64,000 nucleotides of DNA from Bacteroidales bacterium (GTDB taxonomy: Bacteria; Bacteroidota; Bacteroidia; Bacteroidales; UBA3663): positions 2,809-66,808 of the forward strand of contig JAZRVB010000162.1 in assembly GCA_045598885.1 (NCBI GenBank), given 5' to 3'. Below, in pieces: positions 15,314 through 62,871 of the stretch. Within the stretch, counting starts at the first letter, position 1, and each line of letters opens with the position of its first letter. The notes beneath the pieces were generated by a model. The model had not been told where the DNA came from. It did not search any database and saw nothing but the letters and a program-made list of their open reading frames with translations. The translations under genes were made by a program, and so were the position numbers.

Positions 15314-15982
15314 TTATCCGATGATTCGCAGTATCTGCTTCTCTGTCGCATCGGGGAGGATGGATCTCAGATGAGCCAGTAGACGCTCAAACGATTCCTC
15401 TGGAGTCCTCTCGCATTGGCAGAACTCTTTACCATACAGTTGTTCGGGGGTGGTCAGCAATGACCACCCCCAACCGTATTCTTTCCCATGGCTGTCGTGA
15501 GGGTAGACAAAATCCTCTGTGACAATGCGGCAGGCCATCTCCAGACGTGTGATATAACCGTCAAACTTGCTTCGCATGCCTTTGCCGTCAAAGCCGCATG
15601 CGGCACGCAGCTCGCGTGTGATGAGGCTGCCGGCCTCCTGCAGGTTACACAGGATCATGTCCTCGATGGTTCCTTCTGTCGGCATTGGAAATTTGCTGCG
15701 ACGGTAATTGCAGAAATCCGGCCACCACTCCAGACTGATGAATCCGGCTTTCTTATTGAAGAACTTGCCATACACGCAGGGCATGTCGTTGACAATGGGA
15801 CCTTTCCACTTCCAGAGCGGCCAGTCCCAGCCACCGTCGACGAATGTCACATAGCGGCAGTCATCGGTTACCATCTCTTCGGCAGAGAATCCCTCGATGC
15901 CACTGTCCAGTAAGGGAAGGAATCCGATCTCGCGGATCCGTGCCATCAGGCCTGTGGCGTTATATATTTCACGTTTCATCAT
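15314..15982 (-). CDS. hypothetical protein (possibly an AlkZ/YcaQ-related winged-helix protein)
   Basis: Clean 222-aa ORF with coding-like composition. The family assignment rests only on recalled resemblance to short AlkZ-related proteins of Bacteroidales and is weak. Confidence 0.55.
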   Translation of the reverse strand: MMKREIYNATGLMARIREIGFLPLLDSGIEGFSAEEMVTDDCRYVTFVDGGWDWPLWKWKGPIVNDMPCVYGKFFNKKAGFISLEWWPDFCNYRRSKFPMPTEGTIEDMILCNLQEAGSLITRELRAACGFDGKGMRSKFDGYITRLEMACRIVTEDFVYPHDSHGKEYGWGWSLLTTPEQLYGKEFCQCERTPEESFERLLAHLRSILPDATEKQILRIIG

Positions 15983-15995
15983 ATTTTATTATTAT

Positions 15996-16200
15996 AATGG
16001 ACATCCTGCCCTCACGACGTCCGTTCTTGTTTGCAGGAATGGACATCCTGACCCCACGGCGTCCGTTCTTGTTTGCAGGAATGGACATCCTGACCCCACG
16101 GCGTCCGTTCTTGTTTGCGGGAATGGACATCCTGCCCTCACGACGTCCATTCTTGTTTGCAGGATCGGACAACCTAAAACCGTGGCGTCACATTTTGCAG
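15996..16200. repeat. tandem array A1: 4.9 copies of a 42-bp unit (AATGGAC, 16 nt, GTCCRTT, 12 nt)
   Basis: Units start at 15996, 16038, 16080 and 16122. A decayed fifth unit runs to about 16200. Confidence 0.95.
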
Positions 16201-16212
16201 TAATGATCTCTA

Positions 16213-17178
16213 TTATGATTTCCTCAACAGATAATAGATAATCACAGGTACACCGAATAGCGGTGTGAGTGCGTTGATCGGAAGTATCGCACCGTCGGTC
16301 GGAGTGGTGCTGAGCAAGAGACAGAGGCTGCAGCAGAGCGAACCACAGAGGAGAGAGGCGGGGAGGAGGCGACGATGGTCGTCGGTGCGGCAAAGGAGCC
16401 GTGCGACATGCGGCATCGCCATGCCGACAAACGCAATAGGACCACACCAGGCGGTGGTGATGGCAGAGAGGAGGCCGGTGACGAGGAGGAGCATCCAGCG
16501 TGTGCGGGAGACGTTGATTCCCAGGTTACGCGCTGAGGTCTCGCCTAGCATCCAGCCATTGAGTGACTTGATCAGCAACGCGCTGGCCAACAACCCGATG
16601 AGGGTGAGAGGGACGAAGAGCCAGAGACCTGTCAGGCCTACGCCGTTGAAGTTGCCCATACCCCACAGCATCAGGCTCTGCACACCGTTGGCCGTAGCGT
16701 AGAATCCCATCAGCGTGATGGCTGCCGAGGTGAGATAACTTAAGAGGATGCCGACGATGAGCAGCGTGACGTGATGGCGCACGTATCGGCCTAAGAAAAG
16801 CAATAAGGCCAGGATAGCGAATGATCCGATAAGAGCGGCAAGCACAAGGCTTGTGTTAAAGCCGAAGGAGAGTGCTCCATAGCCGCCAGCTACACTGCCA
16901 CCAGCCAGCGTGACGATGGCTACCATGAGGTTGGCTCCGCTGGTGATACCTAAGATGGATGGACCTGCCAAAGGATTGCGGAAATAACTCTGTAACAACA
17001 ACCCACAGACACCCAATGAAGCGCCAGTCATTGCTGCAGTGATAGCAGCAGGCAAGCGACTCTCGAAGACGATGAAGTGCCAGCGAGCGTCGAGGAGTTC
17101 GCTCCAGGGGATGCTTACCGAACCGAACAGGATGTTGGCAATAAGTGCCAGGAGGTTGAGGAGAAGTAAGATCCACAT
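16213..17178 (-). CDS. FecCD-family ABC transporter permease (BtuC-like)
   Basis: 321 aa, fully hydrophobic, about 9-10 TM segments, with FecCD-type blocks (GPIAFVGMAMPH). Lies in the riboswitch-controlled B12 operon. Confidence 0.85.
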   Translation of the reverse strand: MWILLLLNLLALIANILFGSVSIPWSELLDARWHFIVFESRLPAAITAAMTGASLGVCGLLLQSYFRNPLAGPSILGITSGANLMVAIVTLAGGSVAGGYGALSFGFNTSLVLAALIGSFAILALLLFLGRYVRHHVTLLIVGILLSYLTSAAITLMGFYATANGVQSLMLWGMGNFNGVGLTGLWLFVPLTLIGLLASALLIKSLNGWMLGETSARNLGINVSRTRWMLLLVTGLLSAITTAWCGPIAFVGMAMPHVARLLCRTDDHRRLLPASLLCGSLCCSLCLLLSTTPTDGAILPINALTPLFGVPVIIYYLLRKS

Positions 17179-23039: not shown

Positions 23040-23285
23040 GTTTCTTTGTTAACGTCAATAGAAGTGTCCCGTCCTGTCGATCGCAGGAGTCATGAGTGGG
23101 CGCTCTTTGCAGCAGGTCTTCTGGCTCGTCCTGGCTCGGTGTACTGTCTTCCCGCCTGTTAACATGGGCAGTGACATTCAAGGTACGTCGGCAACTAAGT
23201 AGGACACACAGCAGCGGGACTGTTCCGGATTCGCACCGGATTCCCTTTTGATCCGCACTTGGTCAGGGTGCAGAACTGCAAAGCG
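23040..23285 (-). promoter_or_regulatory. cobalamin (B12) riboswitch
   Basis: The minus strand reads AAAGGGAATCCGGTGCGAATCCGGAACAGTCCCGCTGCTGT (23207-23247) and a B12 box GAGCCAGAAGACCTGCTGCA (about 23108-23127). It lies between a TATCTTTG promoter and the receptor ATG. Confidence 0.9.
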
Positions 23286-23313
23286 AAGTGAAAAATAAGT
23301 TTTTTCAGTGGTG

Positions 23314-44694: not shown

Positions 44695-44734
44695 AAGGTA
44701 TCCCGAGGCCTTGCAGTCCCTTCCTGTAACAAGT

Positions 44735-44897
44735 AACATCCATCCTGCACGCAAGACGTCCATTCTCGTAACAAGGAATGGACGTCTTGCGTTCAAAATG
44801 TCCATTCCCGCAACAAGGAATGGACGTCCTGCGTTCAAAATGTCCATTCCTGCAATAAGGAACGGACGTCCTGAAAGCAGAACGTCCATTATTATCT
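44735..44897. repeat. tandem array A2: 3.9 copies of the 42-bp unit (AATGGAC, 16 nt, GTCCATT, 12 nt)
   Basis: Units start at 44735, 44777, 44819 and 44861. Same 7-mers and spacing as array A1. Confidence 0.95.
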
Positions 44898-60694: not shown

Positions 60695-61828
60695 ATGAAA
60701 ATTTCAATACTCGGTCCCTGTTGGCCCTACCGTGGTGGCATTGCAGCCTTTAACGAACGACTTGCTCATCAGCTGCAAGCCGAAGGTCATCAAGTGTCGC
60801 TCTATACATTTACGCTTCAGTATCCAGGATTCCTTTTTCCAGGAAAAACTCAATTTAGTGAAGAATCTGCACCCTCAGATCTCCTTATTGAGCGAAAACT
60901 GTCATCGGTCAATCCTTTTACTTGGCTCTCATTAGGTCGCAAAATAAACAGCGAATGCCCTGATCTTCTCATCATTGCTTATTGGTTGCCATTCATGGCT
61001 CCAGCTTTAGGTTCGGTAGCTCGTTTGGCCAAAAAGAATGGAAAGACCAAGGTGATAGGCCTCCTGCATAATCTGATTCCTCATGAGCATCGTATTGGCG
61101 ATAAGCAGTTCAGCCGCTACTTCATCCAATCCATTGATGCTGCGCTTTCGTTGTCGAAATCGGTGCTCGATGAAATATCACTCTTCAATACCCAACTGCC
61201 TAAGGTATTTTCCCCGCATCCGCTCTATGATAATTTCGGAGAACCTGCCGATAGGGAAGAGGCTTGCAAGAAACTGAGGCTCGATCCTTCTGTCCGATAC
61301 CTGCTGTTCTTTGGTTTGATCAGGAGTTATAAGGGTTTGGATTGGTTAATCGAAGCTTGTTCAAAGAGTGAAGCTATTCTGTCTGGTAGATATAAGTTGC
61401 TCGTTGCTGGCGAGTTTTATGGCAATGAGTCTGTCTATCACGAGCTTGAGAATCGCTTGTCGCTGAATAATCATATCGAATGGCATTCTGTTTTTGTTCC
61501 TGATAGCGAAGTGCGTTACTATTTTAGCGTTGCCGATCTGATTGTTCAACCTTATAAGACAGCTTCACAGTCAGGTGTTACTCAAATAGCCTATCATTTT
61601 CAGAAGCCAATGCTTGTTACCAGGGTGGGAGGATTGCCTGAGATTGTTCCCGATGGCAAGGTCGGTTATGTTGTAGATCCTGATCCGTCTGCAATAGCTT
61701 CAGGAATTGATCGCTTTGATAAAGAAACGCCAGACTTTACCGAGGGACTTTTGTCTCAAAAGCAAAAATACAGCTGGTCGGTGATGACATCTAACTTGCA
61801 AACTCTCTATAAGAATCTTCAGAAGTAA
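60695..61828 (+). CDS. glycosyltransferase family 4 protein
   Basis: GT-B fold with the E(x7)E region GGLPEIVPDGKVGYVVD. Confidence 0.85.
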   Translation: MKISILGPCWPYRGGIAAFNERLAHQLQAEGHQVSLYTFTLQYPGFLFPGKTQFSEESAPSDLLIERKLSSVNPFTWLSLGRKINSECPDLLIIAYWLPFMAPALGSVARLAKKNGKTKVIGLLHNLIPHEHRIGDKQFSRYFIQSIDAALSLSKSVLDEISLFNTQLPKVFSPHPLYDNFGEPADREEACKKLRLDPSVRYLLFFGLIRSYKGLDWLIEACSKSEAILSGRYKLLVAGEFYGNESVYHELENRLSLNNHIEWHSVFVPDSEVRYYFSVADLIVQPYKTASQSGVTQIAYHFQKPMLVTRVGGLPEIVPDGKVGYVVDPDPSAIASGIDRFDKETPDFTEGLLSQKQKYSWSVMTSNLQTLYKNLQK

Positions 61829-61852
61829 TATTTGCTGAAAATAGTTCCGGAT

Positions 61853-62047
61853 GTCATACTTCGCGCGCATTATATGACAAAAACACTTCCGTGGTGTCAT
61901 ACTTCGCGCGCATTGTATGACAAAAACATTTCGGGGTGTCATACTTCGCGCGCATTGTATGACAAAAACATTTCGGGGTGTCATACTTCGCGCGCATTAT
62001 ATGACAAAAACATTTCGGGGTGTCATACTTCGCGCGCATTATATGAC
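61853..62047. repeat. tandem array A3: 4.6 copies of a 42-bp unit (GTCATAC, 12 nt, RTATGAC, 16 nt)
   Basis: GTCATAC occurs at 61853, 61896, 61938, 61980 and 62022. Same 7/12/7/16 geometry as arrays A1 and A2, with different 7-mers. Confidence 0.95.
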
Positions 62048-62085
62048 AAACATAAATTGAAATATAAATCTTAAAATATTGAATC

Positions 62086-62871
62086 GTGTCAGATAACACA
62101 AAACCACTTCGATCACTCGCAGACTGCGATGACGAGCATGTAAAGATACAAAGAGAGAAACTCAAATTCAATCGTACGGTCAACTGGTACGCCTGCTATG
62201 TGCATCCCCAGCACGAATTGCAGTTGCATGACTACCTCATGGGCATCGAGGTAGAGAGGAAAGGCGTACGTCGTGGCAAGGCTAAGAAAGAAGACTTGTT
62301 CGTTGAGGTCGACCCTGCCAAGATGCTCATGGAATGCTATGTCCCCGTGCAGCGCATCCGCGTCAAGCTCTCTGACCGCATGGTCTGGAAGGAGAAGGTC
62401 GTCATCCCTGGCGTCATCTTCGTTCATTGCTCGATCGATAGCCGCGAGCCTTTGTTCTATGGTAAGTATAAGGAATATGTCGTCGGCTTTATGAGCGATA
62501 AAGTTCGTCATCGTCCGCAGCCTATCCCAGATTCCGAGATGGCTACCTTCCGCGCTTTGACCGAATCGGAATATGCCTATCAGATGGAGGCACCGGAGTT
62601 CAAGCCAGGCCAGTCGGTCCTGATCCTTGCCGGTCAGCTCAAGGGTCATGTCGCTGAGCTCGTCAGCAAGAAGGAGGAGATCAGCAAGACGGAGTTCCAG
62701 ACCGATCGATATGGCAAGCCGGTGCTCGATAGCGAGGGCAATCCGATCCCTAAGCATAAGATCACGCTCTGCGTCCGCCTCACAGATATGCTTTGTGCTA
62801 AGTTCGAGGTCGATTCTGACCAGGTCAGCGTTGTGCCGAAGGGTACGAAGACGAAGATTAGTTTTGAATGA
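62086..62871 (+). CDS. NusG-like transcription antitermination protein (UpxY family)
   Basis: NGN-type WYACYVHPQHELQLHDYL and VIPGVIFV. KOW-type GQSVLILAGQLKGHVAELV followed by an insertion of about 45 aa. GTG start. Confidence 0.75.
   Translation: MSDNTKPLRSLADCDDEHVKIQREKLKFNRTVNWYACYVHPQHELQLHDYLMGIEVERKGVRRGKAKKEDLFVEVDPAKMLMECYVPVQRIRVKLSDRMVWKEKVVIPGVIFVHCSIDSREPLFYGKYKEYVVGFMSDKVRHRPQPIPDSEMATFRALTESEYAYQMEAPEFKPGQSVLILAGQLKGHVAELVSKKEEISKTEFQTDRYGKPVLDSEGNPIPKHKITLCVRLTDMLCAKFEVDSDQVSVVPKGTKTKISFE

Follow-up and report, generated by a model that had tools for sequence, protein, structure and literature searches.

The three short repeat arrays in the 64,000-nucleotide stretch of DNA analysed here (the window) belong to a genome-wide class of tandem repeats that are built from palindromic modules and held to an exact spacing of 42 bp. 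We tentatively read these repeats as DNA-level, helix-phased docking arrays for a putative multimerising protein, an interpretation that we put forward as possible rather than probable. The preliminary description of the window had allowed that its arrays, A1 to A3, might prove to be the only instances. Instead, at least 102 arrays with about 408 modules are present in the genome (G000), and both counts are lower bounds. The original observation is confirmed, and it was understated.

Array A1 was described as a 7+16+7+12 layout of two reverse-complementary 7-mers, repeated in four exact units and a decayed fifth, and direct reading and TRF bear this out. Each module reads (G/T)AATGGAC-N16-GTCC(G/A)TTC, with the 10-nt linker TTGTTTGC(A/G)G behind it, and the proposal that every 7-mer can pair with its neighbour on either side is supported. 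On the window, TRF places A1 at 15996-16175 with period 42, 4.3 copies, 91% matches, 0% indels and a score of 283. The array starts 19 bp past the stop codon of a FecCD-family ABC permease gene (stop at 16213), within a gap that does measure 230 bp and whose other edge is the start of an AlkZ-related gene (15982); both genes are on the minus strand. The suggestion that an ATPase gene would normally occupy the gap is not supported; in the related genomes G004 and G018, the coding DNA beyond the array matches none of the AlkZ-related gene. The gene run that closes with the FecCD gene and A1 is preceded, on its own strand, by a cobalamin riboswitch (23094-23295, minus strand, 106 bits). This riboswitch is the sole Rfam 15 match in the window, with nothing credible over A1.

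The same layout was said to recur at A2 with the same 7-mers and at A3 with unrelated ones, and reading and TRF again agree. Array A2 occupies a convergent gap, 40 bp past the stop of a 1874-aa gene. Array A3 is flanked by a 377-aa gene for a putative glycosyltransferase and a 261-aa gene for a putatively NusG-like protein. Its first spacing is 43 bp and all others are 42 bp. TRF reports A2 at 44758-44873 and A3 at 61838-62050 (5.0 copies), both with period 42, and indels amount to 0-1% across A1 to A3. The coordinates of these features are collected in Table 1, together with the main module families.

Table 1. Arrays and neighbouring genes in the window, and principal module families of the genome.
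Feature	Position	Strand	Description
Array A1	15995..16194	.	five 42-bp family-0 units
A1 modules	15995-16026, 16037-16068, 16079-16110, 16121-16152; fifth, decayed, 16163-16194		direct reading
AlkZ-related gene	15314..15982	minus	downstream of A1; Pfam PF24741, E = 2e-68
FecCD-family ABC permease gene	16213..17178	minus	Pfam PF01032, E = 1.4e-70
Array A2	44734..44891	.	four family-0 modules, same 7-mers as A1
A2 modules	44734-44765 (decayed), 44776-44807, 44818-44849, 44860-44891
Array A3	61850..62050	.	five family-7 units, TGTCATAC-N12-GTATGACA
A3 unit starts	61852, 61895, 61937, 61979, 62021
Family 0			GAATGGAC-N16-GTCCATTC; A1 and A2
Family 1			GCAT-N6-CACGGTACCGTG-N6-ATGC
Family 2			GATAGTCCGAC-N10-GTCGGACTATC
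Family 3			GGAGTCAACAC..GTGTTGACTCC
Family 6			GATTTCAACGTT..AACGTTGAAATC
Family 7			TGTCATA..GCGCGC..TATGACA; A3
Family 12			GAAGCTGACAT..ATGTCAGCTTC

The genome of the window is a 3.35-Mb assembly of 235 contigs (GC 48.5%, 82% complete) from a gut or rumen Bacteroidales. When TRF was run on it with a score of at least 100, 106 rows had period 42 and 11 had the multiple 84, whereas no other period had more than eight. The 106 rows merge into 96 arrays that fall into 18 sequence clusters. Palindrome centres located without TRF, whether as perfect hairpins or as scored palindromes, are spaced only 21, 42, 63, 84, 105 and 126 bp apart, and 32-nt palindromic windows form 414 pairs at a spacing of 42, compared with 21-30 at neighbouring spacings within 38-46. 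Chaining of these windows yields 102 reliable arrays with 408 modules, which together span 16.1 kb and take up about 3.3% of the non-coding DNA. Because 19 of the 102 arrays have a contig end no more than 300 bp away, where 4.3 would be expected to, the true number must be higher. Arrays of this kind evidently disrupt short-read assemblies. The exactness of the period is also apparent from the probe GTAC-N38-GTAC-N38-GTAC, which has 90 matches at 41 loci, as against zero when the spacing is set to N37, N39 or N40.

Printed in a 42-column register, each unit resolves into a 32-nt palindromic module, which can form a hairpin with a 16-nt loop, and a 10-nt linker, with whole modules at both ends of an array. 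The palindrome of a unit is imperfect and 26-37 nt long. Linkers are often palindromic themselves (CTTGATCAAG, CATGATCATG, CACGATCGTG) and are often centred on GATC. About 12 arm families can be distinguished in the genome, with further smaller families beside those of Table 1, and over 306 non-redundant units they have one backbone in common, GAA-N7-C-N2-GGTACC-N2-G-N7-TTC. Since this symmetric backbone is common to all, the families look like one superfamily. The claim that geometry is conserved, and not only sequence, thus holds well beyond the window: a length of 42 (or 21) bp is common to the arm families of this genome, to the different ones of the congener G045 and to unrelated units elsewhere in the order. 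Modules and linkers both recur within and between arrays and there are no unique spacers, a repeat structure that rules out CRISPR, as was originally judged. Some arrays end in a family-3-like module set between an A-run and a T-run (AAAAAATATCAACAC..GTGTTGATATTTTT; C107:26825-26856 and the end of the array on C218). These terminal modules resemble two-way intrinsic terminators and could be a bridge between the repeats and terminators of the ordinary kind.

Self-complementarity of the arms is a general property of the repeats. Of the 96 TRF arrays, which for this purpose were picked by period alone, 83% include a stretch of 32 nt in which 10 or more of 16 pairs are complementary, as opposed to 6.9% of shuffled units. 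Over 14 stem pairs, a gap-free alignment of 108 distinct units has 82.8% standard pairs, a value that is inflated because the units were pre-selected at 10 or more of 16 pairs; shuffled units reach 49.5%, and sliding the partner gives 33-41%. In the same alignment, 535 cells are changed on both sides, versus 209 in shuffles, and two-sided changes between families are real. The terminal module at the orthologous A1 locus reads TAAAGGAC..GTCCTTTA in G004 and TAACGGAC..GTCCGTTA in G018, with compensatory changes in the arms. Such co-variation needs intra-strand pairing at some stage, which could occur in extruded cruciforms, in replication hairpins that are corrected by template switching, or in RNA.

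The last of these possibilities would make the arrays RNA-level elements, in which stacked hairpins in the 3′ untranslated region stop transcription, block 3′ exonucleases or are cut into small RNAs. Blocking of 3′ exonucleases is a property of REP sequences in E. coli. The genomic distribution is compatible with such a role, as arrays are found preferentially at gene 3′ ends and in convergent gaps: 25 are in convergent, 46 in tandem and 11 in divergent gaps, against an intergenic baseline of 159, 851 and 216 (chi-square p = 5.7e-5), and in tandem gaps the arrays lie a median of 50 bp from the stop codon upstream and 156 bp from the next start codon. At the A2 locus, the sister species G004 and G022 carry an ordinary terminator-like hairpin and no array. 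A1 to A3 themselves are not plain terminators, in line with the preliminary description, since scans of the relevant strand for a GC-rich hairpin plus T-run flag none in them. The sense strand of A1 folds as RNA with -83.2 kcal/mol (z = -4.5) and as single-stranded DNA with z = -2.2, and transcription has been reported for 52-nt repeats of Bacillus coagulans (PMC8625621).

However, several features of the arrays are at odds with an RNA-level role. Outer-stem mismatches on the sense strand comprise 116 G:T and 98 A:C, so there is no strand signature, and A1 carries its A:C mismatches on the sense strand; strand-specific RNA pairing is therefore not supported. U-tracts are absent, no Rfam family matches, 11 arrays lie in divergent gaps, and arrays occur in both orientations relative to genes. 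Moreover, hairpin function would explain neither the exact 42-nt period nor the non-palindromic 21-bp arrays that occur in related genomes. The GUCCY-hairpin and Flavo-1 motifs (Weinberg 2010) show only a loose resemblance to the modules. We thus consider an RNA-level function unlikely, although it keeps real weight because the arrays sit just behind stop codons and replace terminator hairpins at A2.

A coding function is rejected. The arrays are non-coding and lie between called genes, and open frames that run over them are a trivial result of a period divisible by 3, which produces long spurious frames and false 5′ extensions of genes. Examples are found at 15844-16203 (plus strand) and 15992-16447 (minus strand) of the window and on contigs C228, C110, C71 and C59. 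The arrays are consequently a trap for gene callers, and the apparent coding cases are artefacts of gene calling, save for C179:11495-11744. There, a 42-bp (14-residue) tandem repeat that has no palindrome and stands outside the family is apparently protein-coding, within a long gene according to a crude gene caller.

Mixed arrays, which make up 61 of the 102, keep the 42-bp register across changes of family. The module order 6-12-3-1-2-0 recurs at dispersed loci (C155, C81, C49, C201 and C33), in either orientation relative to the adjoining genes, and linkers at matching junctions are alike. This recurrence of order and linkers suggests that blocks of modules are copied. It is thus conceivable that the arrays are selfish mobile hairpins akin to REP or BIME, wherein a single-stranded 42-nt hairpin or a multi-module block would be copied by a structure-specific enzyme and then amplified locally. 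Candidate enzymes would be a RAYT/IS200-like HUH transposase, a tyrosine recombinase or a small nuclease. Short imperfect palindromes that are extragenic, abundant and lean towards 3′ ends would be expected of such elements, as would the presence or absence of arrays at orthologous spacers described below. In addition, the lone Y1 transposase gene of the genome, on C148, has a mixed array 400 bp downstream.

The partner that this scenario requires does not emerge from our comparisons. The Y1 gene is of IS200 type (86.7 bits) and reaches only 30.6 with the RAYT model, below the cut-off of 80. No homologue was found in the array-bearing sisters G004, G017 and G018, and the best one is in G003, where searches with families 0 and 1 found no array. 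Across the order, Y1 genes occur in four of five array-free Bacteroidales and were not found in the array-rich G241 and G045, so that a RAYT or IS200 partner is rejected. Small nucleases of the GIY-YIG (Ssn or COG2827-like) and PDDEXK_3 types fare no better, as none is encoded near an array; judging by open-frame sizes, the match on C201 probably represents the tail end of a broken AAA plus PD-(D/E)XK gene. The arrays of G000 have no GTAG head, target-site duplication or conserved flanks, and neither phage nor plasmid sequences matched a mixed array, which speaks against an origin in either. Selfish mobility therefore seems improbable to us, yet it keeps some weight because multi-module blocks recur at dispersed sites.

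The surroundings of the Y1 gene have a repeat content of their own. At C148:14690-16220, the gene lies amid CGTCTGGARGACG-type hairpins in both orientations, with direct copies of about 110 nt on either side. The nearby mixed array runs in the order family 1, family-3-like, family 12 and then family 0 in 3.5 copies.

A search within the genus, which covered family 1 in 24 genomes and family 0 in all 38 others, recovered both families at the same spacing in four further genomes (G004, G017, G018 and G022). At the A1 locus, family-0 modules directly follow the FecCD stop, with five in G004 and four in G018. Beyond the array the DNA differs in these two genomes, whose AlkZ-related gene is on other contigs, and no array was found at this locus in G022 or in more distant species. 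At the A3 locus, an array is absent in G022, G004 (heptamer repeats) and G017 (plain hairpin). Hence A1 has been kept after FecCD in two sister species, whereas A2 and A3 are lineage-specific. Arrays can thus persist in species with coding DNA only 75-79% identical, as A1 does, and they also turn over. The congener G045 has 42-bp arrays made from other palindromic units. For comparison among strains, exact-protein look-ups gave no match and the family-1 pattern was absent from JGI metagenome contigs; a metagenome scan for three GGTACC motifs, run without a period control, shows that such repeats exist.

The heptamer repeats at the A3 locus are of the CTAACTC and TAACTCT types and lie directly upstream of the start codon of the orthologue of 62086-62871 in the window. 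The spacer that corresponds to 61828-62086 of the window (G022:C52:47900-48350 and G004:C58:29650-30400) holds a different repeat class in each species.

Turnover of this kind might also be expected of neutral minisatellites. One ancestral 42-bp unit could have spread and diversified, with slippage and unequal crossing-over copying whole units so that the period is simply inherited, and with template-switch correction of quasi-palindromes keeping the arms complementary. The shared backbone makes a single origin in the clade likely. Furthermore, adjoining units are the most alike, super-periods of 84 and 126 bp point to block duplication, and the excess of arrays at contig ends is as expected of unstable repeats. 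Nevertheless, indels in loops or linkers would not harm pairing, and yet arrays with a period of 41 or 43 are almost absent. Unrelated units in other genera, families and phyla keep to 21, 42 or 63 bp (PMC8161180 included), and the persistence of A1 in three species is likewise not what neutrality would predict. Pure neutrality is highly improbable and the least likely of these explanations, given the lack of indels even at sites where they would leave pairing intact.

The restriction of period extends across the order. With the GTAC probe at period 42, at least five matches are found in 30 of 401 Bacteroidales genomes, compared with three genomes at period 40 and none at period 36. The matches in other genomes are unrelated 42- or 21-bp arrays, past which open frames hardly reach. 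In 400 kb taken without selection from the complete genome G271, TRF gives 12 rows at period 21, 12 at 42, four at 63 and five at 41, and one row each at 20, 22, 30, 36, 40, 43 and 44. The first 400 kb of another complete genome, G241, have four rows at period 42 with 10.5 to 20.9 copies, and most of the long repeats there belong to these rows, to a single long array of 41 bp or to the multiples 84 and 126. An array of 7.5 copies of 42 bp with the core GCACGGTACCGTGC is present in a Tannerellaceae MAG (JAISWO010000069.1).

Some of these distant arrays have features that are peculiar to them. G241 belongs to another Bacteroidales family, and its arrays (C1:33254-33847, 223327-223766 and 246691-248245), with up to about 37 units of 42 bp and in one case a 41-bp period, have unrelated units and one flank in common (GGAGAGTGTRCA.AAAAGTGTG). 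The Tannerellaceae array (304-617 of the extracted locus) has an 84-bp super-period and a second dyad centred on GGATCC.

The period lock over unrelated sequences and lineages, the two-fold symmetry and the lack of a strand or orientation signature together argue that a constraint acts on duplex DNA. Four turns of B-DNA would correspond to 42 bp, composed of a 32-bp dyad-symmetric module and a 10-bp linker, and because all axes are 21 bp apart, every dyad points to the same helix face. That a dimeric protein binds there cooperatively, as the preliminary description envisaged, is plausible and is our leading reading. The putative dimeric or multimerising DNA-binding or nucleoid-type protein would line up along the array and would read its shape and the sparse backbone GAA-N7-C-N2-GGTACC-N2-G-N7-TTC rather than the variable arms. 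Arrays may be tolerated or useful mainly at gene 3′ ends and between convergent genes. Slipped-strand or unequal recombination would add or remove whole units, and modules could be exchanged by recombination in shared linkers, while selection for hairpins or cruciforms, or hairpin-templated correction of quasi-palindromes, might keep the arms self-complementary. The unit anatomy, copy number, families, exact period, arm co-variation, positional bias, retention and turnover at orthologous loci and taxonomic spread are direct observations. Protein docking, the mode of array expansion and the reason for the 42-bp rule are the parts of this reading that we infer.

Not all evidence favours protein docking. 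No candidate protein was found among the partners sought, binding to duplex DNA does not require the arms to co-vary, and the bias towards 3′ ends and convergent gaps could reflect harmless insertion sites or an RNA role. The common period within this genome could also partly be inherited by descent, since the backbone is shared. In a wedge model, bends add in phase at 42 bp and not at 37, 40, 44 or 47 bp. However, the predicted bend of real units does not exceed that of shuffled units, and whole arrays hardly surpass random genomic DNA in curvature (p = 0.06). The model hence does not support unit-level selection for intrinsic curvature, and curvature alone is not what is selected.

In favour of helix-phased docking, the lengths of 42 and 63 in Bacteroidales and of 20-21 and 52 in published repeats (PMC8161180) would all be close to whole numbers of helical turns at 10.4-10.5 bp per turn. 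A repeat length that is fixed while its sequence is free implies that something in the cell measures length. One could speculate, although we find it rather doubtful, that Bacteroidales, and by extension other bacteria with 20-21- or 52-nt repeats, have a putative protein or a replication-linked process by which DNA length is counted off in whole helical turns. The dozen or so interchangeable 42-bp palindromic bricks, with their preferred order 6-12-3-1-2-0, would then form a combinatorial chromosomal architecture or code, not junk. This genome is unusually informative for such questions, as it combines a clear unit anatomy, a dozen modules that can be swapped in register and one locus conserved across species, and there are related complete genomes in which bench tests are possible.

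Tandem repeats of related appearance are found in several known systems. BrickBuilt, a minisatellite MITE of Porphyromonas gingivalis, is reportedly intergenic, with a 23-nt unit and terminal inverted repeats. The arrays described here are likewise intergenic tandem repeats from the same phylum, and the conserved flank in G241 recalls the leader and tail of BrickBuilt; those of G000, in contrast, are without conserved flanks. Iteron- or centromere-like arrays of plasmids, such as those of R6K, RK2 and F sopC, are direct repeats at whole helical turns to which proteins bind cooperatively. They are confined to one or a few loci per replicon, lie beside the gene for their binder and are conserved in sequence. 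Unlike these, the arrays of G000 occupy more than 100 dispersed chromosomal loci with unrelated neighbours and no partner gene, and the mixed array compared with plasmids matched none.

The REP and BIME elements of Enterobacteria and Pseudomonas are extragenic imperfect palindromes of 20-40 nt, present in hundreds of copies and associated with RAYT transposases (PMC3733652). Like them, the modules of G000 are short, imperfect, extragenic palindromes in high copy that form mosaic clusters with set linkers and are biased towards 3′ ends. They differ in their direct tandem order and single fixed period of 42 bp, where REP and BIME alternate in orientation and use several linker types. Their ends are GAA...TTC or GCAT...ATGC instead of a GTAG head, with CGTC only inside family-0 arms, and the genome encodes no cognate RAYT.

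The closest relatives are the constant-size repeats of Subirana and Messeguer, in which one genome holds several non-coding tandem-repeat families of equal unit length and different sequence (PMC8161180). Their sizes are 20-21 nt in many phyla and 52 nt in Firmicutes; they are species-specific and share a few characteristic short words, often with the reverse complement. Their cause is unexplained, and a protein that polymerises on DNA or small RNAs have been proposed (PMC8161180). It is the 52-nt class that is reported to be transcribed in Bacillus coagulans (PMC8625621). The arrays of G000 share both defining properties, being numerous, non-coding and alike in unit length but not in sequence. 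Nevertheless, their unit is 42 nt (with 21, 42 and 63 in other Bacteroidales) and not 20-21 or 52, and it is strongly dyad-symmetric, with arms that co-vary and with families mixed in register and in a preferred order. The texts open to searching make no mention of a 42-nt class, of Bacteroidetes, of palindromic modules or of mixed arrays. We therefore regard the 42-nt palindromic mosaic as a new form of a class that is known but unexplained.
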